Of a stretch of 64,000 bases of DNA, positions 16,175 through 64,000 are shown in pieces. The translations under genes and the position numbers were made by a program. The DNA is from an uncultured Pseudomonadota bacterium (lineage in GTDB: Bacteria > Pseudomonadota > Alphaproteobacteria > RF32 > CAG-239). The stretch covers positions 192,295 to 256,294 of the forward strand of contig CABUUO010000001.1 in the NCBI GenBank assembly GCA_902494875.1. Reading direction: 5' to 3'. The notes beneath the pieces were generated by a model, which saw only the letters and a program-made list of their open reading frames with translations, had not been told where the DNA came from and did not search any database. Positions within the stretch are counted from its first letter, which is position 1. Each line of letters begins with the position of its first letter.

Positions 16175-18817
16175 CTAAAAACGATACTTTGCGTTAATCA
16201 TGCCGGTATGGTTCTGATAATCCTGCCGGAACTGTCCTTCATAACCAAATTCCGCTTCTAAGCGATCATTGACTTCGACCGAAAATCCGGCACCTATTTC
16301 CAGCCCCAAACGATGGAGCCGATCACCTTTGATGACGTATGACGAATTGTTGCTTAAGCCGACTAACGCATTATCGGTATCGGAAATAATATCATAAGTT
16401 AAGGCCAACCGTGCTTCGGGCTGCCAATTGGTTCCGTTGCAGGTTGTAAAGTTTTTTGCAACTCTGGCACCGGCAACTGCCGTTAAGACGTCCATCGTAC
16501 GGGAAGACACCCCCTGCCCCAGCGTATCCGTATAAGCTCCGCGGTCAATGCGGGCATAGCGCATTCCGCCTTCCGGCGTGACGTCAACATTGCCGACATT
16601 CAGTTCATAACCGCTCATCAATTGCAGTCCCAGCGTATCCGTATCATATTTAGATTTGACAATGCGGCCGTAAGCGCTTTTATGTTCTTTATAGTCAGCG
16701 AAGCTGTATGATGCGACAGCATTGAGATACCACTTTGACGGTTTATATTCTCCGTAAATAAAAATCGTATGCGTATCTATGTCCGTATCACGCAAAAAAC
16801 TTTCAACGTCGCTTTGGGTATATGCATAGCCCACACCTGCTTTGCTATTATCTCCGACAGCCTTTTCAAATCCCATGGCCACACCGCCGGATTTTGTATC
16901 AAAACCGTGCGTTTTAGAATTATCGTCAAGTTTTGATTTGTTCGCCAGCATCTGCACCCAGGAGGCTCCTTTATCAAAAATTCCGTCTCCGGCAGACATA
17001 CCGGGTAAAATGCCGGAGACAACGCCACCCGACAGCCTTGACGATACGGCATTAAAGACCTGAGAACTATGCTCGGTGGCAGCCGTTCTGGCTAACGGCG
17101 CGGCATCGGGAGCCAGAGCATAGGCTCCATCGACTATTTTTCCGCTGTCACTTCCGTTCTGAAGCGAAGTATTTATATAGTCCGCAATATCGTTAAAACT
17201 CTGATTGGAACCGTGACCGTTGGTAAAAGCATTGATGAGGCCGGCATTGTTTTTGCTCGTATTTAAAGCGCCTGCAATTTCCGTCTCTGTTTTCTTACCG
17301 CTGTAGAGTAATGAACCGTCATCGTTCAGTGCAAAATTGTAAAGATTATTGCTTATGTCAAATTTTCCTTCAATATGACCGCTTTGCAAGATGTCATAAC
17401 TGCCGATTTCCGTATCGGAATTAACTATCAGATTAAGCTTGGCGCCATCTTCAATGTTCAGTTCATCGGCTTTAATCGAAGCGTATTCAGAAGTGTCTTT
17501 TATACCGATATTCAGTTTGGAATTGCCGTTAAAGCTAATCGAACCGCCGGAGACCGAAGCTGTCGATGCCAGTGTAACTTCGGCATCGTTGACATTTATT
17601 TCTCCGTTGCCATCTATACCGCCGGTAAAAGATGTATGTCCGGATGAAATAGTCACTACGGAAGCATTATGAATATCATTTAATTTTCCGGCGGCGGTAT
17701 TGCCTTGAAAAATATTGTTCCCGCTCAAAGTCAGCGCTGCGTTTTTCTCTCCCCAAATAGCACCGCCGCTTGATGACGCTTTATTATTTATAAAAACGGA
17801 ATCTGAAATTTCCAATTGGCCGCCATTCCATTCTTCATTATATACAGCTCCGCCATTAACCGCCTGATTTTCTTCAAAACGCGTATTATAAATATGCATT
17901 TTTCCCTGATTATTAATCGCACCGCCTGAGGCATACCAACCGCCGGAGACCTTGTTATTGTAAAAATAGCTGTTGCGAATGGTCGTTTCGGCCGAAGGTC
18001 TGGCAAACAAAGCGCCACCCAAAGCCATAGATCCGACACTCACACTGTTATTGGCCATTATAACATTATCCAAATCGGCTTTACCGGCATTGGTTATTGT
18101 AGCATGAACCGTTCCACCACTTAAGCTGCTGCCCGAAATAGAAGAATCAAAAATTTTCAGGGAGCCGCCTTCTTTATTGAAAATTAACCCGGCATCCCCA
18201 TTGCTGACAAAATTGTACAAACCGCTTTTCTCATCAGCAGAATTACCGATATTTTCAAGGATAAGCTCTTTATCGCTATTTATAACAAAACCGATTTTGT
18301 TGTTGCCATTTATGGAATGACCGTTTCCATTAACAATTAAGACATCTGCACTCTGCCCCTCAATACTATTTTCTAAGGTTATATCACCGGTCAAATTAAT
18401 TTTTTCCGTACCGTTTTGTACCAGAAAAGAAAAATTTTTTCCGTTATCGGTAGTTACATCCCGGCTTAAAACCAAATGCAGAGTACTGTCTTTCCGGATG
18501 GAATAATCCTGAAGCGTATTGCCTGCCGCCAAACTGCTACCGGCAAAAGTCAACAGTTGGTTTTCCGGCGAAACACCTTCTTTATCATATATTTGGGCCA
18601 TAATATCTTCAATTCTGTCTGTCGGTTCGACTTCAAGGGTAATATGCTTGCCGCTCAGCGTTTTTACAAAAATCTGCATTGCCGAGGCATTTTCAGCACC
18701 AAGTATCATTACGGCAAACAATCCGGCATTAATCAACGCGCACTTCTTTAAAACGGAACGATATTTTGAAGTCAATACCTTTAAGGCGGTACGGGAATAT
18801 TTCATAAAGCTCTCCAT
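16175..18817 (-). CDS. autotransporter with an N-terminal ubiquitin-like domain and Pmp-type (GGA[ILV]/FxxN) passenger repeats
   Basis: 880 aa with an extended signal peptide. A 72-aa block, [72 protein letters not shown], is about 65% identical to eukaryotic ubiquitin by eye. It ends in LVLS, not LRLRGG. GGAI/FxxN repeats follow. The C-terminus ends ...NAKYRF, a typical terminal-Phe OM beta-barrel signature. Confidence 0.8.
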
Positions 18818-52739: not shown

Positions 52740-53775
52740 AAAATACTTCCTGAGATAATTCGTCTAAATCTACTTTTTCAACTTCAGAACGGATGGTGGC
52801 GACAAAGTCCTGACGGACCAGATTTGCCGCATTGCCGACAGCAACCGAAAAGCCCAGGGCATCGGTTCCGCCGTGGCTTTTAACGGACAGGCCGTTCAGT
52901 CCGACCAGCATTGCACCGTTGTAAAGCCTGGGATCCATCGTTTTTTTGACTTTGAGCATAACGCCCAGCATAAACGGCAGGCCGAGTTTGGCCAGAAAAG
53001 AATGGTTAATGGCGTCTTTCAGCAGTCTTACAACCAGACGCGCCGTTCCTTCAATGGACTTTAGAGCTATGTTGCCGGTGAAACCGTCGGCAACTATAAC
53101 GTCGGCAATGCCGTTGGGAATTTCGTGCGGCTCAATATAGCCGATAAAATCAATGTTCATGTGAGAATGTTTCATGATTCTGGCAGCCTGGCGAATCTCT
53201 TCCTTGCCCTTCATTTCCTCGGCGCCGATGTTCAGCAGCGCCACCCGCGGCTTTTTCACATTCAGGGCATGCCGTGCTAAGATGTCTCCCATCAAAGCAA
53301 ATTCGGCCAGATTAACGGCATCGCATTCCGTATTGGCGCCCAAGTCAAGCATAACATAGCGGCCGTAACGGTGCGGCATAATACTGACGATTGCCGGGCG
53401 GTGAATCTTGGTAATTGTTCTCAGCACAATTTTGGAAATAGCCATCAGGGCGCCGGTATTTCCGGCAGATACCACAGCTTTCGCCTCGCCCTTGCGGACG
53501 GCGTCAATTGCCATATACATGCTGGTGTTTTTATTACGGATGACCTGAGAAGGCTTATCTTCGTTGTGCACCACTTCGTTTGCGTGGCGGATTTCGCAGA
53601 CTTTTTTCAGAGCCGGATAAGTATTGAGGATGGGATTTACTTTGTTTTCATCGCCAAACAGCAAAAACCGTATGTCTGGATTTTTTTTGGCAGCGATAGC
53701 AAGCCCTTCTATCACGACTCTGGGGGAATTATCTCCCCCCATAGCGTCTATTGATATGACCAGATTATTAGACAA
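52726..53775 (-). CDS. plsX: phosphate acyltransferase PlsX
   Basis: 349 aa; ISIDAMGGDNSP N-terminus; overlaps fabH by 14 nt. Confidence 0.9.
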   Translation of the reverse strand: MSNNLVISIDAMGGDNSPRVVIEGLAIAAKKNPDIRFLLFGDENKVNPILNTYPALKKVCEIRHANEVVHNEDKPSQVIRNKNTSMYMAIDAVRKGEAKAVVSAGNTGALMAISKIVLRTITKIHRPAIVSIMPHRYGRYVMLDLGANTECDAVNLAEFALMGDILARHALNVKKPRVALLNIGAEEMKGKEEIRQAARIMKHSHMNIDFIGYIEPHEIPNGIADVIVADGFTGNIALKSIEGTARLVVRLLKDAINHSFLAKLGLPFMLGVMLKVKKTMDPRLYNGAMLVGLNGLSVKSHGGTDALGFSVAVGNAANLVRQDFVATIRSEVEKVDLDELSQEVFYEVY

Positions 53776-53838
53776 GAAACCTGCTCCATATAGAATTGAA
53801 CATACACAGACACACTTCGTATGTTCAAATGATTTTAA

Positions 53839-54801: not shown

Positions 54802-55260
54802 ATGTCAATAAACAAAATACGTTTTCTGGGGCTGTTAGCGCTGTTTTCAATCTGCGGATGTTCCAACGACCTGTTTTTAACCCATAACGGCAATATGCCT
54901 TCCAACGAACGGATCGCCAAGGTAAAAGTAGGCGATTCAAAAAATCAGGTCATTTCACAGCTCGGCTCGCCCTCTTCCGTCGTATCTTTAGACCAGAATA
55001 CCTGGATATATATGTCGTCAGACATTAAGCGCGTGGCTTTCATGGCGCCCAAGGAAGTCAGCAGAGACGTTCTGACCATTGAATTTGATCCCAAAGGCAA
55101 AGTTGAAAACATTAAACGTCTGACCAAAAAAGACGGCGTTGAGGTTGCCGTCAGCGAGGAAAAAACCGACGCACTCGGTCATCAGCCCGGATTTTTTGAG
55201 AAATTTTTCGGCGGTATCGGCAACTATGCACCATTTCCGGGTATCAAAGATCAGATGTAG
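54802..55260 (+). CDS. bamE: outer-membrane lipoprotein BamE (SmpA/OmlA)
   Basis: 152 aa; lipobox LFSICGCS; SmpA/OmlA-like core; followed by a hairpin-T6 terminator. Confidence 0.65.
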   Translation: MSINKIRFLGLLALFSICGCSNDLFLTHNGNMPSNERIAKVKVGDSKNQVISQLGSPSSVVSLDQNTWIYMSSDIKRVAFMAPKEVSRDVLTIEFDPKGKVENIKRLTKKDGVEVAVSEEKTDALGHQPGFFEKFFGGIGNYAPFPGIKDQM

Positions 55261-55275
55261 TCCTTTAAATTTTCA

Positions 55276-55304
55276 GAAAAAGCGCCCCACAGGGCGCTTT
55301 TTTG
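55276..55304 (+). terminator. intrinsic terminator after bamE, at the boundary of the low-GC island
   Basis: A5-AGCGCCC-CACA-GGGCGCT-T6. Confidence 0.6.
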
Positions 55305-55468
55305 TTATATTTTATTCTACTTTTAGTTTTATTATGTATTTTTAATTGATATAAAATCACTTTTAAATTGCATTATTAAAAATAATAGGTATTATACCTC
55401 TGCATAGCCCCTGACCCGGGACAAAAACTTAAAGAAATACATTTTTTATGTTAGGCGTGTTCAGATAA

Positions 55469-56386
55469 ATGCAGAAAAAATATCCCCATAAAATTGCGGT
55501 TCAGATATTCGGCCATTTGCGCAGTTATAAAAACTGCATTTCCGCTCTGAAGAAAAATCTTTTGGATCGATATGACTGTGATGTATTTATGCATTGCTGG
55601 GACGTTTCGGACTACACTCAAAATACATCCGTCACTAAAGATGAGATTGCACATATTAAAAGTATGTACGCCTTAAAAGATTTTAAAATGGAATCTCAAA
55701 AAAAACATGAGCCCATGCGTATTCCGTGTCTCGCAACGAGCAAAGCACAGCACATTGACATTTATGCGATGAAAAATATGCTGTATTCAATGCAGCAGGC
55801 CAATCACCTGAGAAAACTGTATCAACAGAAAAAAAACATAAAATACGATATTGTTATCTGCATCCGCCCTGACATATATCTGAAGAGTCCCATCCCCCTT
55901 GATTTGTTTTTATCCGAAATGTCCGTTTTGGGCGCATCACTAAAAAACAAACGTTTTTGCGCTGTTAATTATAATAAGCGGCAAAAAAATTATATTTTAA
56001 GTACCGATTTGGCCAGTGACATTATAACCTTTGCAGAACAGGACACTATGGATGCCATTATATCGGCTCTGTCACAAATTGACTTTGTCAAAGAACAAAA
56101 ACGGTTTTGGAATCCGGAAAGTTTTTATTCTGCCGTTTTGGAAGAACACGGCATTTCGTCGTATGCCATTACCTATAATTATCGGGACAACTGGGAAATT
56201 ATGCGTCCCATATATTTAAAATCTTTGAATGTTCGGCGGCTGCGTAAAAAAATCATTAAAATTCATATCAACAAGCGGGAGCTGCGCGTTTTTTTATTTA
56301 ATTTCATTCCCAAAGAAGTTTTTAATTTTGAAGCCGTTTTTTTTGAGAAATTTACAATACAATTTTGCATAGGAATTCCGAAATGA
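55469..56386 (+). CDS. hypothetical protein, 305 aa; first gene of the low-GC island
   Basis: Track ORF in about 30% GC DNA; the stop overlaps the next start (ATGA). Confidence 0.5.
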   Translation: MQKKYPHKIAVQIFGHLRSYKNCISALKKNLLDRYDCDVFMHCWDVSDYTQNTSVTKDEIAHIKSMYALKDFKMESQKKHEPMRIPCLATSKAQHIDIYAMKNMLYSMQQANHLRKLYQQKKNIKYDIVICIRPDIYLKSPIPLDLFLSEMSVLGASLKNKRFCAVNYNKRQKNYILSTDLASDIITFAEQDTMDAIISALSQIDFVKEQKRFWNPESFYSAVLEEHGISSYAITYNYRDNWEIMRPIYLKSLNVRRLRKKIIKIHINKRELRVFLFNFIPKEVFNFEAVFFEKFTIQFCIGIPK

Positions 56387-58008
56387 CAAATACCATCATT
56401 TTATCTGCAGGAAAATTTAACCCCAAGAACATTTCAGCCGGCATGATCAGCGATCCCGGTTTGTTGCCAATCAGAGGTAAACCAGCTATCAACTGGTGCA
56501 TAGACTCTGCAATGAAAAACGGAGCTGAGAATATTAAAATTATTCTCAGAGAAAGCAATACGCGCCTCAGCCGCTTTCTAGGATACAGTTACCCCGAAGT
56601 TCAGCAGTATTTCATTGACAGCAACTCTGACTTTTCATCATCCGTATTGAACATTTTATCCGATTGCGACGAAAACCAGCCCACACAAATTATTCTCGGA
56701 GACACGCTTATTGACGAACCGTTTCCGGATGAGGCCGATGTTTTCTTATCTTCACCAAACATCAAAGCTTCCAAGCAATGGTGTCTGGTTACGAAAGACG
56801 ATCAAAACCATATTGAAAGAATATATAACAAAGAACGTGACATATCTATTGCCGGCAAAGAGGCCTTGGTTGGTTATTATAAATTTTCAGACACAGCCCT
56901 GTTAAAGAAACTCACCGCTCTGGAGTTAAAATCACCAAATTGCAGTTTTATTAACATTTTGCTCAATTATAACCGCAAACATCCGATTGTTATTAAAACG
57001 ACGCAGAGATGGTTCGACTTCGGCCATATCAGCGGCGCGGTTCAGGCCAGATTGGGATTGTTCAGCGCTAGGGAATTCAATTCGCTCAAAGTTGATGCCG
57101 TACGCGGAACCATTACCAAAATATCAAAGAAAAAACAAAAGCTTTTGGATGAGGCAAACTGGTATCAAAAACTTCCGGCGGACGTATCGTGTTACGCTCC
57201 CCGGGTTTTCAATGTTACCGAAACAGATGAACTTGCCAGCGTAGAAATGGAGCTTTACGGCTATGCCAATTTAGCAGAAACTTTTATTTACGGTTCCAAC
57301 AATCTGGAAGACTGGTACAACATTATTGAAGCGTTGTTAAAGGTGCATAAAGTCTTTGAAAATTATACCGAACCACAAAACAAAGAAGAGCTGGAAGAAA
57401 TTTACCGCAGCAAAACCCGGCAAAGAATAAATGACATTCAGAACAAAAATCCTGAAATTGCCAAAATGATGCAAAGCGATTATTTATCCATCAATAATGT
57501 TCATTATAAAAATTATCCTTTGTTGAAAAAAAGCCTAGATAAAGAAATTGATGCTCTGACAAACTATCCCAAAAGGACAATTGTCCATGGAGACTATTGT
57601 TTTTCCAATATTTTATTTGACCCGATGCATTATATTTTCAAACTGATTGATCCCCGCGGCAGATTCAAAACGCAAAGTATTTACGGAGATCCCCGTTATG
57701 ATATTGCAAAACTTCGCCACAGCATCGTCGGACTGTATGATTTTATAGTCGCCGGATTATACAAATTGAAAATTGCGGCTCCGGACGTATATGAATTTCA
57801 AATTTCTACGCCGATTTTAACTGAAAAGCTCGAACCTTTCTTTGACGAACTGGTTGTTGAATACGGATATGACCGCAGAGAAATAAAACTTATTGAGGCT
57901 CTGCTCTTTTTAACCATGATTCCTCTGCATGCCGACGACGTTAACAGACAAAAAGCTTTTTACCTTACTGCAATTCAAAAACTAAACGAGGTTTTATATG
58001 ATGAATAA
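56383..58008 (+). CDS. bifunctional nucleotidyltransferase / APH-choline-kinase-like kinase fusion
   Basis: The real start is MTNTIILSAGKFNP. The N-terminal ~230 aa are sugar-phosphate nucleotidyltransferase-like. The C-terminal ~300 aa carry the kinase catalytic loop HGDYCFSNILFD and IDPRG of the APH/ChoK fold. Confidence 0.55.
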   Translation: MTNTIILSAGKFNPKNISAGMISDPGLLPIRGKPAINWCIDSAMKNGAENIKIILRESNTRLSRFLGYSYPEVQQYFIDSNSDFSSSVLNILSDCDENQPTQIILGDTLIDEPFPDEADVFLSSPNIKASKQWCLVTKDDQNHIERIYNKERDISIAGKEALVGYYKFSDTALLKKLTALELKSPNCSFINILLNYNRKHPIVIKTTQRWFDFGHISGAVQARLGLFSAREFNSLKVDAVRGTITKISKKKQKLLDEANWYQKLPADVSCYAPRVFNVTETDELASVEMELYGYANLAETFIYGSNNLEDWYNIIEALLKVHKVFENYTEPQNKEELEEIYRSKTRQRINDIQNKNPEIAKMMQSDYLSINNVHYKNYPLLKKSLDKEIDALTNYPKRTIVHGDYCFSNILFDPMHYIFKLIDPRGRFKTQSIYGDPRYDIAKLRHSIVGLYDFIVAGLYKLKIAAPDVYEFQISTPILTEKLEPFFDELVVEYGYDRREIKLIEALLFLTMIPLHADDVNRQKAFYLTAIQKLNEVLYDE

Positions 58009-58384
58009 TGAAAAAAAGTTGAGAATATGCATAGATCTTGACGGAACAATCTGCGAGATCAGAAAAGATCCTCAAACTTATGCCGACGTTAAGGCCAAGC
58101 CCGGTGCCAAAGAACGTATTCATGCGTTAAGGGCCGCCGGCCATACCGTTATTATCAATACTGCACGCAATATGGGATCAACCGGACATAATGTCGGCAA
58201 GGCTCTAAAAAATGTCGGTAAGATGACTTTTGAATGGTTAGAGAAAAACGGAATTGAATATGACGAGATATTTTTCGGCAAACCTAATGCAGATATTACC
58301 ATTGATGACCGAGTTGTCCGTTTTGAAGACAACTGGGAAGAAATGACAGAAGATGTGTTAAATAAAGCTGCAAAAGCGAAATAG
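57998..58384 (+). CDS. small HAD-superfamily phosphatase
   Basis: 128 aa; DxDGT motif (CIDLDGTIC), later GKPN and IDD motifs; overlaps the upstream gene by 11 nt. Confidence 0.55.
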   Translation: MMNNEKKLRICIDLDGTICEIRKDPQTYADVKAKPGAKERIHALRAAGHTVIINTARNMGSTGHNVGKALKNVGKMTFEWLEKNGIEYDEIFFGKPNADITIDDRVVRFEDNWEEMTEDVLNKAAKAK

Positions 58385-58392
58385 GTGTTAAA

Positions 58393-59112
58393 ATGTTAAA
58401 TATTGTAATTCCGATGGCCGGTGCCGGCAGCCGTTTCAAAGCGCAAGGCTATGATTTGCCCAAGCCGTTTATTGACATTAACGGCAAAATGATGATTGAG
58501 CATGTTCTTGACGGTATAAACTATCCGAACGCACACTATACCCTGATTATTCAAAAGCAATTTGAAACAGAAAATCGTGACCAGTTGGAAAAACTTTCCA
58601 AACACTATCATGTTGCGTTTCTTTCTGTTGACAAACTGACACAAGGAGCTTGCTGCACGGCTCTGGCCAGCCATGAAATCATCAACAACAATCTTCCCGT
58701 TATTTTTGCAGATTCTGATAATATTTTTGATAATCTGGCCTTTCAAAATTTTGTCAAAGACTGTTTGGATCGGAAGCTCGACGGCAGTCTGCTTACATTT
58801 AACACGCAAGAGGCTTGTTTTTCTTTTGTGGAAACGGATGAGAACGGCTATGCCCTGCGAACAAAAGAAAAAGAAGTTATCTCCAATCATGCAATTACGG
58901 GAGTTTATATGTTTCGCCGCGGAGCCGATTTTGTAAAAAACGCTATAGACATGATGATATACGGCGATAAGGCAAAAAATGAATATTACATGAGCAATGT
59001 CTATAATCACGCAATAAAAAACGGAGCTCAAATAGGCATTTATGACATTCATGTTCAAGACTGGGCGTGTGTCGGCACCCCCGAACAATTGAAAAAATAT
59101 CTGGGAGACTGA
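58393..59112 (+). CDS. sugar-phosphate nucleotidyltransferase
   Basis: 239 aa; N-terminal MLNIVIPMAGAGSRF and C-terminal DWACVGTPEQL match the NDP-sugar pyrophosphorylase fold signature. Confidence 0.7.
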   Translation: MLNIVIPMAGAGSRFKAQGYDLPKPFIDINGKMMIEHVLDGINYPNAHYTLIIQKQFETENRDQLEKLSKHYHVAFLSVDKLTQGACCTALASHEIINNNLPVIFADSDNIFDNLAFQNFVKDCLDRKLDGSLLTFNTQEACFSFVETDENGYALRTKEKEVISNHAITGVYMFRRGADFVKNAIDMMIYGDKAKNEYYMSNVYNHAIKNGAQIGIYDIHVQDWACVGTPEQLKKYLGD

Positions 59113-59113
59113 A

Positions 59114-61089
59114 ATGCATAGTACCCTCTCCGAAACCCATTTGTTCATTCTTTGGCCGAACGGAAGACAAAAAGAAAAAGAAGTTATGGAAATTGTAAAG
59201 AAAAATTTCCAGATTTTGAAGCTTTATGAAATATTATGGTCGCAAGATAAAATTTTAGATAACTACACTTCCTTTTACGGCTTTGACCACTCTCAAAACC
59301 ACAACATAATCAATGAGCGAGGGGGGGGTATTTTCTACTTATGATTGTTAGAGACAATAATCCAAAGTACGAAAACAGAATGACTTCAAAAGGAATGGTT
59401 CCTGTTAACATTAATACATCAGATGTTAAATCATATATCAGAAATGTTATTTTTCAGGGAATAAACCTGCTTCATGGAACCAACTCTGAAGAAGAAACCA
59501 GACATGACTTAGCTCTGTTACTGGGACGCAGCCTTTCTGACTTTTTAAAAGAAACCAAACTTGATGGGGCATTAGAAAAATTATCTCAAAATCTTCCGGC
59601 AGTAGACGGATGGAAAAGTCTTTCTCAGGTATTTTATATTCTTAATGAAACATGCAGATACGCTGTTTTGAGAGGTTTTGAAAAACTTCCAGGCAATTTT
59701 ACTCCTTTTGACGGGGATATCGATCTTTTGATTGAAGACCCTCAGTGCTTTACTTATACCTTAATGTCAGCCCAGTCTGACGGTTCCAATGATTTCGCTT
59801 TTGCCAATTTAGTAAAAGTTAAAGACAGTATTTTCAGTTTTCATACCAAATATATAGGCGACGGTTATTATGACACCCGGATGTCGCAAAAAATTATTGA
59901 CACGAGACAAAAAAATAAAGCAGGCATTTATATTCCGTCTGATGAAATGTATTTTTACGAACTTTTATACCATGGCATTATACATAAAACCAATTATTTA
60001 AAATATGCTGACATTTTTAAAACCTTGGCTTCAGAATTAAAAATAGAAAAATTTAACCTAGAGTTTTCTTATTTAAAAAAACTGATAAATACGTGGCTGA
60101 AAAACAACAATTACAAATGCCCTCTTCATTTAGACCATACGAGAAGCAGGCATAATGAGAACATATCCGAAAAAAAACTGATAAAAGATATTCCCGATAT
60201 ATATATTTATCAAAATCATACGGATACAATCATCTTCAGTTCTTTATTAATAGCACGGCATCCGGGCCTAGCCTCCAGATATACAAAAATATGCGGTCCT
60301 TATCATAATTGGCAGCAGCATCTCTTGTCTCCGGAACATAAACTTTACAAAGAGATGTCTCGTAAGGCGGCAAAGGGACAAATTGCCTGGATTTTCAAAA
60401 AAAGATTTGGCCGGATAATGTTGACGACATTGACGGTAAAATCCGGAGAAACCATTTTTACCAGAAAGATATTAGGAACCCCGCAAGATATTGAATCTCC
60501 ATATCTGATTGTCACGGCAGATAAAAAAAGGAAATTTATTGCCGGAAACAACGTAGGAAATATCTTAAGTTCAATAAAAGATTCAAATATTCTCAAGATA
60601 GAACTGGAGAAATTCGTTGGTGAAGTTTTTTCGCAGTATCGTACCGGCAATGCTGCTTTATTGCAGCCAAACGCATGGGATGCCGTACCTCATAATTGCA
60701 TTTTAACCAATGAAAACAATTATTGTTTTTTTGATTTTGAGTATTCATTAAAACACGGCGTTGACAAGTCATATATGCTATGGAGAATTATCCGTCATAC
60801 CAATATGATAATACAAGACAAATTTTCTCTATATGATGAATTCTGCAAAAAGTTTAATCTTGAAAATAAGTTTTTCTGGTGTGAATTTCTGGATGCTAAA
60901 ATTCATGAAAGGCTCTTAGACGCATACTCTATGCCTCCGAGTTTTATTAATAAAATAAAAAAGTTTTTAATTAATCTGACGGTTACACCAATCGCTCAAA
61001 AAAATTTACGAGATAAATACAGAAAAAAACTGGAACGTCATTTTCTTTTTTTCAACCAAAAATTATGGAAAAGATATTTTATTAACTAG
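59114..61089 (+). pseudogene. large hypothetical protein split by a G8 homopolymer (76-aa ORF plus 582-aa ORF); G9 would give one 658-aa product
   Basis: ORF 59114..59344 is in frame 2 and ORF 59341..61089 is in frame 1. The frame-1 reading is open from 59317, across the G tract at 59321-59328. Inserting one G fuses ...NERGGG to YFLLMIVRDNN... without a stop. Confidence 0.55.
59321..59328 (+). repeat. poly-G homopolymer (G8), candidate slipped-strand phase-variation tract
   Basis: GGGGGGGG in a region of roughly 30% GC; its length determines the reading frame of the 658-aa gene. Confidence 0.6.
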
Positions 61090-61105
61090 CAAATGAGAGG
61101 TTTTA

Positions 61106-61923
61106 ATGAATAAAAATAAAATTTATAATAAGCTTATAAAGTTATTATCTTATTTCATTCCGCTGTCAAATAACAGAAAAAACTTTCGTAAAAAATTTCT
61201 AAAAAACAACATTTGTGCTGATGTTTCTTCCAGTATAGTAAATTATGGTCATAACAACATTGTAAAATTAATTCTGGAAAATGGTGAAGAAATTATAAAT
61301 CCTGCTATTTCTGGCCTAAAAATCATATTTTACGGAAATAATAATCTGGTTGTCTTGCATTCTCCAATTCAATTTCGGGCATCTACATTTGAGATGCAGT
61401 CTGATTCTTTGATTAACATACAAAAAAGCAAATATTTTTTATGTAATCTAAATATTTCTCCTATGAACAATAATACACTATTAATAGGCAGAGATTTTTC
61501 CTGTTCATCTGTTAATATCCGTTTACATGATGAACCCAAGCTTACTGTTAAAATAGGCGATGATTGTATGTTTTCTCATGATATTGAAATTCGTTCGAGT
61601 GATGGGCATACAATATTAAACAGAAAGACAAAAGAGATATTAAATCCAGCAACAGACATTAAAATTGGCAACCATGTTTGGATTGGCATGAGATGTATTT
61701 TATTAAAAAATACACAAATTCCAGATCATTCTATACTCGGCGCTAATTCTCTCATAAATAAATCTTTTTCCGCCTCACACAACCGGGGGGGGTGGTTATT
61801 GCAGGGATACCCGCCAAGATTGTCAAGAACGATATTGTTTGGCTTAGGCACAGTACAAATCTAGCCTCTGAAGAAATTATAGACGATTTCTACAAAGAAT
61901 ATAAAATTAATATGAAGGAATAA
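61106..61923 (+). pseudogene. hexapeptide-repeat (left-handed beta-helix) acetyltransferase truncated by a G8 tract; G9 would give a 272-aa product
   Basis: The track ORF ends ...SHNRGGWLLQGYPPRLSRTILFGLGTVQI*. The +1 frame after the tract reads VVIAGIPAKIVKNDIVWLRHSTNL...KINMKE*, the canonical C-terminus of LbH acetyltransferases. The upstream part has IKIGNHVWIGMRCILLKNTQIPDHSILGANSLI hexapeptide repeats. Confidence 0.65.
61785..61792 (+). repeat. poly-G homopolymer (G8), candidate slipped-strand phase-variation tract
   Basis: GGGGGGGG followed by TGG; inserting one G restores the acetyltransferase C-terminus. Confidence 0.6.
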
Positions 61924-61927
61924 TAGT

Positions 61928-63148
61928 ATGAAGACGCTACAGAAAGCTATAATTACGCCAACTTTTTCAGGACATTTTGGTTATATAAAAAACTATTTAA
62001 AAAGTTTCGATCGTTATCTTATAGATCGTGATTTTCCAATATTTTTTATTATAAATAAAAATGAAAACAGTATTTTTTCTCCTATTATCCAAAAGTACCG
62101 TAATCGTTTAAATTTAAATGTAATTTTTCTTGATGATATTTTTGAACATTTCAAAATTGACGAAACACCGGAAGAAGCCTTAAGCAAATATGGACGTTTA
62201 TCTTTTCAAACATTAAAAAAATTTTACGGGGCATTATACGTTAATGCTAAAGAATTTTTATTTCTTGATTCAGAGAGTATGTTAATAAAACCAACGAACA
62301 TATCTCTGCTTTTCGATGATTATTTTAAAAAACCAACATTTTTTATTTCTCGAATATCTGAGAGGGCTCAAGGCTTCAAAGAAAACTTTACATATGAATT
62401 TTTAAATGCGGTTACAAACCTTTTAGGAAAAAAACCAGAGTACTGGAGTATTGAATCTTATGAATGGTTTTATAAACTAGACATATTGAAAGATCTGATA
62501 AATGATTTGGGAACACCTATCGAAATTGTAAAGAACTATAAAATGCCCGGTAAGTTTCCAAATATCGAAGGAATTCTGGAAGCTCTTCTTTATTATCAAT
62601 ATATTTTATACCACAATGACAAATACGGCTATACAATCAAAATAATAGAAGATGAGCTCAGAGAAGCTCTGGGAGATAATAACTATAAGAGATTCCGTCA
62701 GTATTTTGACAAATCGCCCTTTTTTATATGTGGCGTTTTAGAAACGGCAATGTTTTTTATCGATAAGGACAATGCTGATGGTTTCATTCATTTCCTAAAC
62801 AAATATAAAATCCGTTTATTACGTGTAGAAGATCCTAAAATTAACAATGCAACGGCCCAAATAAAAATAATTAAGAATACGGGAATTCATATTTGTCCAT
62901 CTTCTCAGAACCATATCTTTGGAATAAACAGTACAATAAAAAAACGTTTCAATATACTGATAGGAAATAACAGAAATATTCAAAAACTGAAAAAACATTT
63001 TACTAAATTTGCCAAACCATTCATTTTTATTTGCAAGCCATTTCTGGCTACGATTAAATGGATGTTTGAAATTATTCCCATTTGCATTTATTCATTGAAA
63101 TCATTGAATATCGTTTTGAAAAATCTAAAAAATATATTGTTTGGGTGA
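61928..63148 (+). CDS. hypothetical protein, 406 aa (possible glycosyltransferase-like)
   Basis: Track ORF in the island; no motif I can name with confidence. Confidence 0.45.
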   Translation: MKTLQKAIITPTFSGHFGYIKNYLKSFDRYLIDRDFPIFFIINKNENSIFSPIIQKYRNRLNLNVIFLDDIFEHFKIDETPEEALSKYGRLSFQTLKKFYGALYVNAKEFLFLDSESMLIKPTNISLLFDDYFKKPTFFISRISERAQGFKENFTYEFLNAVTNLLGKKPEYWSIESYEWFYKLDILKDLINDLGTPIEIVKNYKMPGKFPNIEGILEALLYYQYILYHNDKYGYTIKIIEDELREALGDNNYKRFRQYFDKSPFFICGVLETAMFFIDKDNADGFIHFLNKYKIRLLRVEDPKINNATAQIKIIKNTGIHICPSSQNHIFGINSTIKKRFNILIGNNRNIQKLKKHFTKFAKPFIFICKPFLATIKWMFEIIPICIYSLKSLNIVLKNLKNILFG

Positions 63149-63157
63149 TTTGCAAAA

Positions 63158-64000
63158 ATGACTAATATACAAAAATCAGACATCACATTCATATGCAGCG
63201 GCAAGATATTTGCAGGAAAAAAATTTAATACTCTTGCATCAATAAAATCCGTAAAAAAATATTTTCCTGAATCCAAGATAATTCTTTCGACATGGGAAGG
63301 AGAAAATATTGAGCCTTTTGAAAAATTCTGTGATTTAATAATATTAAATCCATGCATGGAAATGAAATATCATACTTGTTTGGAATCATGTTCTTGGTAC
63401 CCTAAATTGAATTCTTATGATTTGCAGCAAAAGAGCGTCAATGCCGCATTACGACAATGTAAAACTAAATATGCCGTTCGGTTCAGAACCGATTTTGTTC
63501 TTAAAAATGACAACTTTTTAAAAAAGTACATTGAATTTGAAAATATCTTTGATCGGTTTGTACCTGAATATAAAATATTTCAGAACAAAGTTCTGATTCA
63601 TCAAACCGGAACAATTTCTCCTTATACCAAAGATGTTCCGATGCTTCATCATCCTTCAGAATTATTCCATTTTGGTCTAACTGAGGATTTATTGAAAATA
63701 TGGACCGGAAAGAATATGCCAGAAAAGATTGCAGATTACTTTCATGATGAAAACCATAATGAGAGCAATCCGTGTCTTTTTAATCATAGATATACACCAG
63801 AACAGTATATTTGGTTAAAAATGCTTGATGATTCCGGTGTCGGCTACGAAAAACCGGACTATTATCTTTCCTTTTCCGAAAAAATGAGACAAGAACAAGA
63901 CAGGCTTTTCATTTCTAATTTCATTATTCTTGATGCGCAAGGCTTGGGAATATCATCGAAATTTGATGAAAAATTGAAACATGTACAACATCGTTTTTAT
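63158..64000 (+). CDS. hypothetical protein, 5' part; the ORF is open to the window end
   Basis: ATG at 63158, which I translated by hand as MTNIQKSDITFICSGKIFAGKKFNTLASIKSVKKYFPESKIILSTWEGENIEPF... The frame stays open to 64000. It is absent from the track because it has no stop in the window. Confidence 0.5.
   Translation, partial: MTNIQKSDITFICSGKIFAGKKFNTLASIKSVKKYFPESKIILSTWEGENIEPFEKFCDLIILNPCMEMKYHTCLESCSWYPKLNSYDLQQKSVNAALRQCKTKYAVRFRTDFVLKNDNFLKKYIEFENIFDRFVPEYKIFQNKVLIHQTGTISPYTKDVPMLHHPSELFHFGLTEDLLKIWTGKNMPEKIADYFHDENHNESNPCLFNHRYTPEQYIWLKMLDDSGVGYEKPDYYLSFSEKMRQEQDRLFISNFIILDAQGLGISSKFDEKLKHVQHRFY

Follow-up and report, generated by a model that had tools for sequence, protein, structure and literature searches.

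The window analysed here, 64,000 nucleotides (64 kb) of contig CABUUO010000001.1 from an uncultured gut alphaproteobacterium (GenBank assembly GCA_902494875.1, positions 192,295 to 256,294 of the forward strand), closes with a low-GC gene island that begins downstream of bamE. The island comprises the genes O1 to O9, all on the plus strand and joined by 4-11-nt overlaps or gaps of at most 63 nt (Table 1); eight of them fall in the window, where O5 is broken into two open reading frames (ORFs) by a frameshift, and two, O5 and O6, carry poly-G tracts of variable length. We read the locus as an acquired insert of ~11 kb, holding an operon that decorates a surface polysaccharide, probably through a nucleoside diphosphate (NDP)-furanose pathway, with phase-variable O5 and O6, and put the probability of this reading at roughly 0.7.

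Table 1. Features of the island and its left flank in window positions, followed by two sets of loci from related species
Feature	Position	Strand	Description
bamE	54802..55260	+	PF04355 E 3e-14; conserved left flank, outside the island
bamE intrinsic terminator	55276..55303	+	12-bp stem and T-run; left edge of the insert just downstream
O1	55469..56386	+	305 aa; DUF7796-like (E 8e-4, under cutoff)
O2	56383..58008	+	541 aa; N-terminal nucleotidyltransferase-like domain and C-terminal APH-fold kinase in one 541-547-aa protein; AfhE-like
O3	57998..58384	+	128 aa; cap-less HAD phosphatase, AfhF/BcbF-like
O4	58393..59112	+	239 aa; canonical sugar-1-phosphate nucleotidyltransferase
O5	59114..61089	+	658 aa in frame; 76-aa and 582-aa ORFs in the window
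Poly-G tract 1	59321..59328	+	G8 in O5 codons 69-72; out of frame
O6	61106..61923	+	LbH (hexapeptide) O-acetyltransferase; 272 aa in frame
Poly-G tract 2	61785..61792	+	G8 in the 3' part of O6; aberrant C-terminus
O7	61928..63148	+	406 aa; GT-A-fold glycosyltransferase, unannotated family
O8	63158..64000 (runs past the window end)	+	WavE family, PF07507 E 5e-33; 366 aa in full
O9	outside the window, 3' of O8	+	WavE, 334 aa, PF07507 E 3e-42
Loci with 24-85-bp bamE/TerB-like spacing			L009, L010, L012, L014-L017, L036, L079
Loci with G8 in plsX			L020, L022-L024, L026, L028, L031, L032, L083, L086

A nine-gene low-GC operon downstream of bamE

GC content was measured in 1-kb windows against a baseline taken from bases 1-54000 (46.3%, standard deviation 3.1, range 38.3-53.0). 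From the bamE terminator to the window end the mean is 34.5%, distributed in two tiers: 38.9% over O1-O4 (55469-59112, z about -2 to -2.8) and 31.6% over O5-O8 (59114-64000, 1-kb z -3.4 to -5.6), with 35.6% in the interval 59-60 kb; the interval 54-55 kb (yceD and intergenic DNA) is already at 38% before the island begins. GC at third codon positions (GC3) is 26-42% in the island genes versus 50-61% in fabH, plsX, bamE, mfd and recG. A preliminary description of this DNA, made from its sequence, had reported such a drop in GC, which is real, and had given it as roughly 30-33%, which overstates it over the first 3.6 kb: because the composition is two-tiered, that figure fits from about 60 kb onward only. 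Its start for the island, right after the bamE terminator, and its dense packing of plus-strand genes agree with the features in Table 1, and its statement that the island continues beyond the window is borne out by contigs of the same species. The O7 protein is encoded on 11 public metagenome contigs; the eight distinct assemblies that we retrieved match the window at 99.4-99.9% identity across as much as 12 kb. On these contigs (L001-L006) the order past the window end is the rest of O8, O9, a 63-aa ORF and a perfect bidirectional hairpin terminator (L001 13544-13588) that ends at window-equivalent ~65.5 kb, placing the end of the low-GC operon ~1.5 kb beyond that of the window; GC is back to 43-53% at window-equivalent ~65.0-65.4 kb, and beyond the terminator lie a minus-strand 198-aa gene, a 223-aa TerB-like gene, mfd and recG. 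The distance from the bamE stop to the stop of the TerB-like gene is about 11 kb in the window species, and nine genes make up the low-GC operon, which takes about 10 kb of this ~11-kb insert.

The gene content largely matches what had been described for the window, with some reassignments. The second of the two nucleotidyltransferases stands as a separate protein (O4), the first being fused with the APH kinase in a single protein (O2); the small HAD phosphatase (128 aa) and the LbH acetyltransferase are as stated; and the four unknowns comprise one WavE protein, one weakly DUF7796-like protein and two proteins without a Pfam match. The acetyltransferase O6 matches Hexapep (PF00132, E 4e-9, 36.1 bits versus a threshold of 27) as well as galactoside, maltose and WbbJ acetyltransferase models. 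O8 and O9 score 115 and 145.5 bits against the WavE model PF07507, whose gathering threshold is 27, and are 28% identical to each other, aligning from the start at 63158; our literature search, in which the keyword also matches 'wave', found no report of a biochemical WavE function. O7 has no Pfam or NCBIfam match, and its 43 homologues are all unannotated. Its AlphaFold2 model (predicted local distance difference test score, pLDDT, 93.3) gave 157 Foldseek matches in the Protein Data Bank (PDB) at E<=1e-3, with E down to 1e-6 and with TarP, TarS, XXYLT1, RmlT, GTA/GTB, SpsA and glycogenin at the top, and an invariant D114-S-E116, a DxE variant that comes after a beta-strand (in the segment 'FLFLDSES'), occupies what we judge from sequence to be the DxD position (TRANSFERASES: O7, GT-A fold; O8 and O9, WavE proteins). 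An O7-like domain is fused to WavE domains in a related cassette (L094), and BLASTP of O7 against WavE was negative. PDB searches with the single sequences of O2, O5 and O7 returned nothing useful.

The putative sugar-activation module

O2, O3 and O4 together have the makings of a sugar-activation pathway. O2 contains an APH domain (PF01636, E 3e-7, residues 255-450) preceded by 246 N-terminal residues with weak matches to NTP_transf_3 and Arch_glmU, and has more than 950 homologues, part of which are named 'capsular biosynthesis protein'. An alignment of 12 bacterial and phage sequences revealed that the kinase motifs HGDxxFSN, IDPRG and YGDxRYD are invariant (H408-G-D410...N415, D429-P-R-G and Y445-D446 in O2), and we consider O2 a putative anomeric kinase of a sugar phosphate. 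Among curated models, O3 matches best, over its full length, the EcbF-BcbF capsule biosynthesis phosphatase model TIGR01689 (E 9e-16), with a score of 57.9 bits, under the cutoff of 162, that makes it a relative outside the narrow subfamily; HAD-IIIA and histidinol-phosphatase models are matched weakly, and O3 would strip the distal phosphate from a sugar bisphosphate. O4 matches PF00483 (E 4e-9) and rmlA_long (E 1e-13), bears the signature PMAGxGSRF and is predicted to make the NDP-sugar. Upstream of these genes, the O1 family (alignment A4) has invariant GHxR, DxFxHxW and RxD motifs, and O1 homologues are fused to a family 2 glycosyltransferase (GT2) in L094 and, in the K11 and Citrobacter loci considered below, lie within larger proteins; O1 is a candidate transferase for the activated sugar. 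A relationship of O1 to WavE was considered and is not claimed (3% probability in an hhalign comparison of the families; BLASTP of O1 against WavE negative).

Counterparts of O2 and O3 occur in phages, where tblastn with O2 matched 268 records. In Mosigvirus AlbertHofmann, a phosphosugar isomerase gene is followed by one for a 561-aa 'enzyme involved in UDP-arabinose biosynthesis' and an overlapping one for a 133-aa phosphatase. O2 is 27% identical to the 561-aa enzyme over the kinase domain (E 5e-13, collinear alignment), O3 is 33% identical over 104 aa to the phosphatase encoded beside this AfhE-like gene (E 1e-14), and the order and overlap of the O2 and O3 genes are the same as in the phage pair. 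In phage HY126, whose AfhE and AfhF are reported as the counterparts of this pair, AfhE is a bifunctional arabinose 5-phosphate (Ara-5-P) kinase and UDP-arabinose pyrophosphorylase and AfhF a Mg-dependent HAD phosphatase that converts arabinofuranose 1,5-bisphosphate to arabinofuranose 1-phosphate (PMC13326640). As a side observation, Enterococcus phage Planchet (L097 4660-7857) has homologues of both proteins, that of O2 being full-length (28% identical over 98% of O2) and that of O3 45% identical, and their neighbours include a pyrimidine hydroxymethylase gene and genes with glycosyltransferase annotations. The cluster probably serves DNA hypermodification too, with the same sugar-activation pair, and its annotations 'Glycosyltransferase' and 'Polynucleotide kinase' look wrong.

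A larger set of relatives is found on the Escherichia coli K11 capsule plasmid NZ_CP103510.1 (PMC10433991), in region 2 of which homologues of O1, O2, O3 and O4 are all clustered. The O1 family aligns with a domain of a 562-aa protein (hhalign 96.7%, E 4e-10), O2 is 32% identical to its K11 homologue (E 3e-46), O3 29% identical to the K11 HAD protein (E 1e-13) and O4 28% identical, over its full length, to a 'capsular biosynthesis protein' (E 2e-22). Of the group 3 loci, K11 alone lacks rml genes, and fructose is among the group 3 structures (PMC10433991). In Pasteurella multocida type B, the fructose side chain is lost in bcbE and bcbG mutants, and the HAD gene bcbF, mutation of which was not achieved, is predicted to act with bcbE and bcbG (PMC13552107). 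None of the island ORFs gave a SIS or isomerase match, whereas the phage cluster has an arabinose-5-phosphate isomerase, and in the absence of an isomerase from the island the substrate should be a common metabolite. D-fructofuranose 6-phosphate is D-arabinofuranose 5-phosphate plus a CH2OH group at the anomeric carbon, so it is chemically plausible that an AfhE-like kinase would make fructose 2,6-bisphosphate. Fructose side chains occur in the capsules of E. coli K4 and K11, P. multocida types B and E and Haemophilus influenzae type e, and Rodriguez and colleagues are said to have found in 1990 that K11 is made of glucose, fructose and phosphate only. A blastn search of 5,426 E. coli genomes with O2-O4, aimed at the K4 kfo genes, returned chance kdsB words only. 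Taken together, the similarities of O1-O4 make D-fructofuranose the most likely activated sugar.

The alternative that survives best is D-arabinofuranose, which would be activated as by AfhE and AfhF, from Ara-5-P supplied by the host KdsD, and passed as NDP-arabinofuranose to lipopolysaccharide (LPS). Gram-negative bacteria make Ara-5-P for Kdo, and since this host is expected to do the same, an island-borne isomerase would be unneeded. O2 and O3 are, moreover, homologous and syntenic to the phage UDP-arabinose pair (PMC13326640). O2 is nevertheless closer to the K11 protein than to the phage kinase (32% versus 27% identity), a stand-alone O4 and an O1-like domain are common to the island and the K11 locus and absent from the phage cluster, and among curated models O3 comes closest to the BcbF family, linked to fructose. 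We regard arabinose as rather unlikely and fructose as having about twice its odds. A bolder proposal goes beyond the choice of sugar: O1-O4 could be the long-sought route by which ketofuranose (fructose) side chains are activated and attached, via a DUF7796-type transferase, and the same invention as phage DNA arabinosylation, with O5 founding a new, phase-variable class of glycan phosphotransferase; we hold this possible, albeit unlikely on balance.

Poly-G tracts in O5 and O6

The only two G/C runs of at least 7 in the 64 kb lie inside O5 and O6, and both escaped the preliminary description. They sit in a region of 17% G, and about 0.005 runs of at least G8 are expected by chance in the island versus two observed. 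Tract 1 (O5) measures G8 in one, G9 in five and G10 in one of seven independent assemblies, and tract 2 (O6) measures G8 in five, G9 in three and G10 in one of nine; the two tracts are the sole indels among sequences that are 99.4-99.9% identical. G9 is the in-frame length for both genes: it alone yields a full O5, which is a single 658-aa ORF in the G9 contigs, and only in the G9 frame does O6 end with its canonical C-terminus ('...GGVVIAGIPAKIVKNDIVW...' / '...GGVVIAGIPAKIVKND...'). Three combinations of states were seen, with both genes in frame, with O5 only in frame and with both out of frame. The window represents the last of these (G8, G8): with tract 1 at G8, O5 appears as a 76-aa and a 582-aa ORF, and O6 leaves its frame at residue ~228, to end at 61864 after 252 aa. 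With G8, the TGA of the short O5 ORF overlaps an ATG (ATGA), and a 582-aa product without half of the NDK-like domain described below could still be made. No other simple-sequence repeats were found. The features of a contingency locus, namely an unexpected intragenic homopolymer of at least 8, length polymorphism and toggling between intact and truncated frames, are present, and the genes may switch within a population.

It could be objected that the length differences are sequencing or assembly artefacts, or fixed mutations, and that O5 and O6 are pseudogenes in the window strain, in which both are out of frame; the lengths do come from consensus contigs, and homopolymers are error-prone on some platforms. 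Such artefacts would, however, have to spare every other position in 12 kb of eight other assemblies made with different assemblers, to produce three length classes per tract and to vary independently between the tracts. The number of G8 runs in so G-poor a region, their location in surface-glycan modification genes, which is the classic one, and the fact that the commonest O5 length is the in-frame length also speak against this explanation, which we consider improbable.

Homopolymers of this size are sparse in related species: runs of at least 8 in 1.26 Mb of their loci amount to about 4 orthologous sites. Ten related species have a G8 in the first plsX codons ('MGGD' region; for example L022 10030; Table 1), a homopolymer conserved within an essential gene; the window species has only a C6 (plus strand) there, at 53735. 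A G7 stands at the place of tract 2, at the 3' end of the LbH homologue of O6, in L091 (13790) and L092 (13767), and a related cassette in L093 has a C10 at 1867 and a C8 at 13713. In these related cassettes, which are of 53% GC, runs occur in the 3' end of an acyltransferase gene and upstream of a Gly_transf_sug gene.

The function of O5 is the weakest step of our model. Neither whole nor cut into three pieces did it match Pfam, and it had no PADLOC match, yet its AlphaFold2 model (pLDDT 90.6) and the searches together give three domains, which are nucleoside diphosphate kinase (NDK)-like, nucleotidyltransferase-like and protein-kinase-like. Residues 1-150 have an NDK fold (Foldseek against the PDB, E 6e-4), with H121, which is invariant, N124 and E128 conserved at the position of the catalytic HGSD motif of NDK. 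The middle domain bears the motif 'LRxFExLP...GDIDLL' and weakly matches NTP_transf_5 in Pfam, its profile finding nothing in the PDB. The C-terminal family profile matches protein kinases (E 4e-6), a signal that may in part be driven by true Pkinase domains in some of the aligned homologues. An exhaustive HMMER search retrieved 1358 representatives at 50% identity, of which 310 reached E<=1e-30; most span residues 6-340, that is, the first two domains, and about two dozen span all three. O5 homologues occur as fusions with GT2, GT8 or Pkinase domains and adjoin WavE, HAD and NTP_transferase genes. In a viral structure library the three best matches of O5 are proteins of giant viruses, and two of these carry a glycosyltransferase annotation. 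We suggest that O5 is a glycan phosphotransferase or kinase, in which the NDK-like domain may feed the kinase-like domain through a phosphohistidine.

Origin of the island and its place among known systems

A scan for PlsX, with one genome per species, provided 80 related loci from uncultured gut Alphaproteobacteria (PlsX identity 76-91%), including 'Proteobacteria bacterium CAG:495', 'Candidatus Scatocola' and 'uncultured Azospirillaceae'. Wherever these loci reach far enough, fabH-plsX-rpmF-yceD and a divergent bamE are kept, and bamE is present in every locus that reaches its position. Within 10 kb of plsX in the 80 species, tblastn (E<=1e-5) gave no match to O1-O5 or O7-O9, and the matches to O6 are weak (24-33% identity) and lie on the far side of plsX. 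In ten related species, bamE and the TerB-like gene are convergent, 24-85 bp apart, and share a single hairpin terminator. Homologous cassettes occur elsewhere. Those of L091-L094 adjoin genes for a resolvase and PBP1 and have O2, O3 and O4 that are 69-86% identical to their window counterparts; L106 has a compact O1-O2-O3-O4-O7-WavE set that separates rplJL from rplKA. On this distribution, with absence near plsX and two other chromosomal sites, it is not the case that relatives hold the same genes at the same place with native composition. Atypical composition (GC and GC3) and absence from the same site in close relatives, both of which characterize horizontally acquired islands, were thus found together, and the horizontal acquisition proposed in the preliminary description is upheld. 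Our best reading is that the island was acquired by transfer and is probably a mosaic of two modules.

That the locus is instead ancestral to the lineage and was lost in relatives, its low GC reflecting local mutational bias or selection, would accord with the failure to find an integrase, tRNA or repeat and with O1-O4 homologues that are 75-86% identical in other gut alphaproteobacteria. This explanation has to contend with the ten species that have only 24-85 bp and an intact shared terminator at the site, with three different chromosomal sites for the cassette across species, with the mosaic of two composition tiers and with the O5-O9 homologues, which are only 30-59% identical and belong to organisms of 24-34% GC; we judge it decidedly improbable. 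The site has accepted different surface-related cargo, as indicated by a 409-aa autotransporter beta-domain gene at the bamE/TerB-like junction in the two closest species (L007 7246-8475 and the equivalent in L008), which are the only relatives with other surface cargo there. The wider gaps next to bamE in distant relatives hold native-GC housekeeping genes (recJ, an ompA-family gene, DUF192 and DUF502), and the idea of a general glycan-island hotspot at bamE was dropped.

Two further observations concern mobility of related cassettes. A serine recombinase (resolvase with a helix-turn-helix) lies directly upstream of the cassette in L091-L093 (8348-8950) and L094 (7565-8152) and may be an invertase-type switch in place of poly-G tracts. 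In L088 (1-5716 and 19803-23090), a related cassette with a HAD gene, two nucleotidyltransferase genes, an acyltransferase gene, an O5-GT2 fusion, an O1-like gene, two WavE genes, an ABC transporter and a split transketolase stands between Mu-like phage genes on both sides (portal, Mu F, integrases, GemA, MuA/MuB-like), an arrangement that suggests prophage-borne glycan modification.

The glycan-decorating role first proposed for the island agrees with its phage-like sugar-activation pair, its GT-A enzyme, its two WavE proteins and its acetyltransferase. Every gut-alphaproteobacterial cassette seen has WavE genes along with the O2/O3-type pair, and so does a Citrobacter plasmid cluster that is O-antigen-like (galF-flanked, with Wzm/Wzt transporter genes). 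A phosphocholine pathway of the lic1 type or a heptose pathway of the HddA/GmhB/HddC type, the two analogies offered in the preliminary description, is very improbable as such. An APH/choline-kinase fold fused to a nucleotidyltransferase resembles LicC-LicA fusions, and kinase, HAD phosphatase and nucleotidyltransferase follow heptose logic, which is right in principle, O2 and O3 being homologues of the phage UDP-arabinose pair. Searches of all island ORFs against Pfam and NCBIfam, however, gave no match to LicB, LicD, choline-kinase or Stealth CR models, GmhA/SIS and GHMP-kinase models were likewise unmatched, the HddC model reached only E 4e-4, a phosphatase has no role in the lic pathway, and the closest relatives with reported or deduced functions (AfhE/AfhF and K11 region 2) use furanose phosphates. 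Glycosylation of DNA or anti-phage defence, suggested by the phage matches of O2, which lie within DNA-modification clusters in both records examined, is extremely improbable in the face of partner genes of the WavE, O-acetyltransferase and GT-A types, capsule and O-antigen loci as the setting of the bacterial homologues, no thymidylate-synthase-like hydroxylase/hydroxymethylase or GT-B DNA glycosyltransferase in the island, and negative PADLOC results for O1, O5 and the two downstream minus-strand genes.

We propose that the kinase domain of O2 would phosphorylate a furanose phosphate drawn from central metabolism at its anomeric carbon, that O3 would take off the distal phosphate and that O4 would turn the resulting sugar-1(2)-phosphate into an NDP-sugar; for fructose, the route would run from fructose 6-phosphate through fructose 2,6-bisphosphate and fructose 2-phosphate to NDP-fructose, D-arabinofuranose being the alternative. 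O1, O7, O8 and O9 would pass the activated sugar and other residues to an acceptor synthesised by genes outside the island, which might be LPS core, O-antigen or capsule, O6 would O-acetylate the product, and O5 would add or relay a phosphoryl-type modification. Slipped-strand changes in the two poly-G tracts would switch O5 and O6 independently, so that one strain could display several glycan variants.

Several points weigh against this reading. The GxGxR signature is missing from the N-terminal domain of O2 and its gut-alphaproteobacterial clade ('SAGKFNPKNIS...'), whereas phage AfhE-like proteins keep a nucleotidyltransferase signature (GAGLATRL, AAGRGKRM). As a separate O4-type gene is always present in the clade that lost it, O4 appears to have taken over the pyrophosphorylase step, and the division of labour between O2 and O4 is, given this loss, a guess. 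The link to fructose rests on loci whose gene functions are genetically defined (BcbE/G) or only deduced (K11, from the capsule composition and the lack of other special sugars). Tract lengths were taken from consensus assemblies, not from reads, and homopolymer miscalls are possible. The insert has no integrase, tRNA, mobility gene or flanking direct repeat, in keeping with what had been described for integrases and repeats. Finally, the island has no export, polymerase or initiating-transferase gene, so its most likely target is a glycan whose synthesis is encoded at other loci of the genome, and the decorating role is itself deduced.

The kind of system is familiar and is new in its host clade, the gut Alphaproteobacteria. 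Simple-sequence contingency loci appear to vary a surface glycan in these uncultured bacteria by a strategy known mainly from mucosal pathogens. Gut Bacteroides vary their surface glycans by invertible promoters instead, and the resolvase beside the equivalent cassette in some relatives invites comparison with Bacteroides-type invertible switching. The island also links the phage DNA arabinosylation enzymes, the Pasteurella fructose side-chain genes and the E. coli K11 locus, to our knowledge three previously unconnected bodies of work, and the linkage yields a concrete, testable pathway of furanose activation; the Pasteurella genes are, as far as we know, genetically defined and biochemically unexplained. 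In addition, three unannotated families, O1/DUF7796-like, O5 and O7, are flagged as putative glycan-pathway enzymes.

Three other features of the window and its extension deserve mention. The 198-aa orphan gene adjoining the island terminator and the TerB-like gene (L001 13601-14197, minus strand, window-equivalent about 65.5-66.1 kb) has a native GC of 49.7% and no counterpart in any of the 80 related loci, and neither Pfam nor PADLOC gave a match. In the 5' part of plsX, a 460-bp block (window 53365-53824) holds about 55/72 differences between the window and L003, which is otherwise >99.8% identical to it; this block is, by its sequence, a signature of homologous-recombination import from a diverged relative. 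An 880-aa autotransporter encoded in a local GC dip (16175-18817, minus strand; beta-domain PF03797, E 8e-47) has a passenger that starts with a eukaryote-type ubiquitin domain (PF00240, E 4e-20) directly after a signal-peptide-like N-terminus; about 60% of the 71 aligned residues equal human ubiquitin, the domain ends in 'LVLSRD', not 'LRLRGG', and the protein has the appearance of a ubiquitin mimic that a gut alphaproteobacterium displays on its surface or secretes.

Among known systems, region 2 of K11 has O1-O4 homologues together (O1 as a domain of the 562-aa protein) in low-GC, mobile polysaccharide DNA. Unlike the island, the K11 module is set in a kps capsule locus of the ABC-transporter type that also has Stealth and TagF-like polymerase genes, is without WavE, O5, O6 or O7 genes and poly-G tracts of at least 8, and has the order of HAD and kinase genes reversed, at identities of 20-32%. 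The bcbE-bcbF-bcbG genes of P. multocida types B and E are alike in that O3 belongs to the wider BcbF/EcbF HAD clade and in that they serve side-chain decoration, not backbone synthesis (PMC13552107); the sequence comparison covers O3 and the BcbF/EcbF model, with a score below the family cutoff. AfhE and AfhF (HY126, with counterparts in RB69, DLP3 and Bas47), which form the UDP-D-arabinose pathway for arabinosylated 5-hydroxycytosine DNA, share with O2 and O3 the pairing of a ~550-aa nucleotidyltransferase and APH-kinase protein with an overlapping gene for a ~130-aa HAD phosphatase, as well as the logic of sugar-omega-phosphate to 1,omega-bisphosphate to sugar-1-phosphate to NDP-sugar (PMC13326640). 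They differ in that their acceptor is DNA, that of the island presumably being a surface glycan, and the island has a separate O4, an O2 without GxGxR and identities of only 27-33%. The ADP/GDP-heptose pathway (HldE or HddA, GmhB, HddC) shows the same combination of anomeric kinase, HAD-IIIA-type distal phosphatase and nucleotidyltransferase, whereas the island kinase has an APH-type fold, a GmhA isomerase is lacking and curated heptose models matched marginally. The wav core-oligosaccharide clusters of Vibrio cholerae also contain WavE (PF07507) proteins, of which the island, unlike them, has two paralogues in a non-core accessory setting, and in some relatives WavE is fused to GT8 or O7-like domains. 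With respect to phase variation, Campylobacter jejuni, Neisseria and Haemophilus have poly-G contingency genes in which capsule or lipooligosaccharide (LOS) genes switch frame independently, and the island resembles these C. jejuni capsule/LOS, Neisseria and Haemophilus LOS genes in its intragenic G8-10 tracts within low-GC glycan-modification genes and in the independent frame switching at several genes that would give combinatorial surface variation. It departs from the loci of those pathogens in its host, an uncultured gut alphaproteobacterium, and in the genes that are switched, an LbH acetyltransferase and a protein of an unannotated family.

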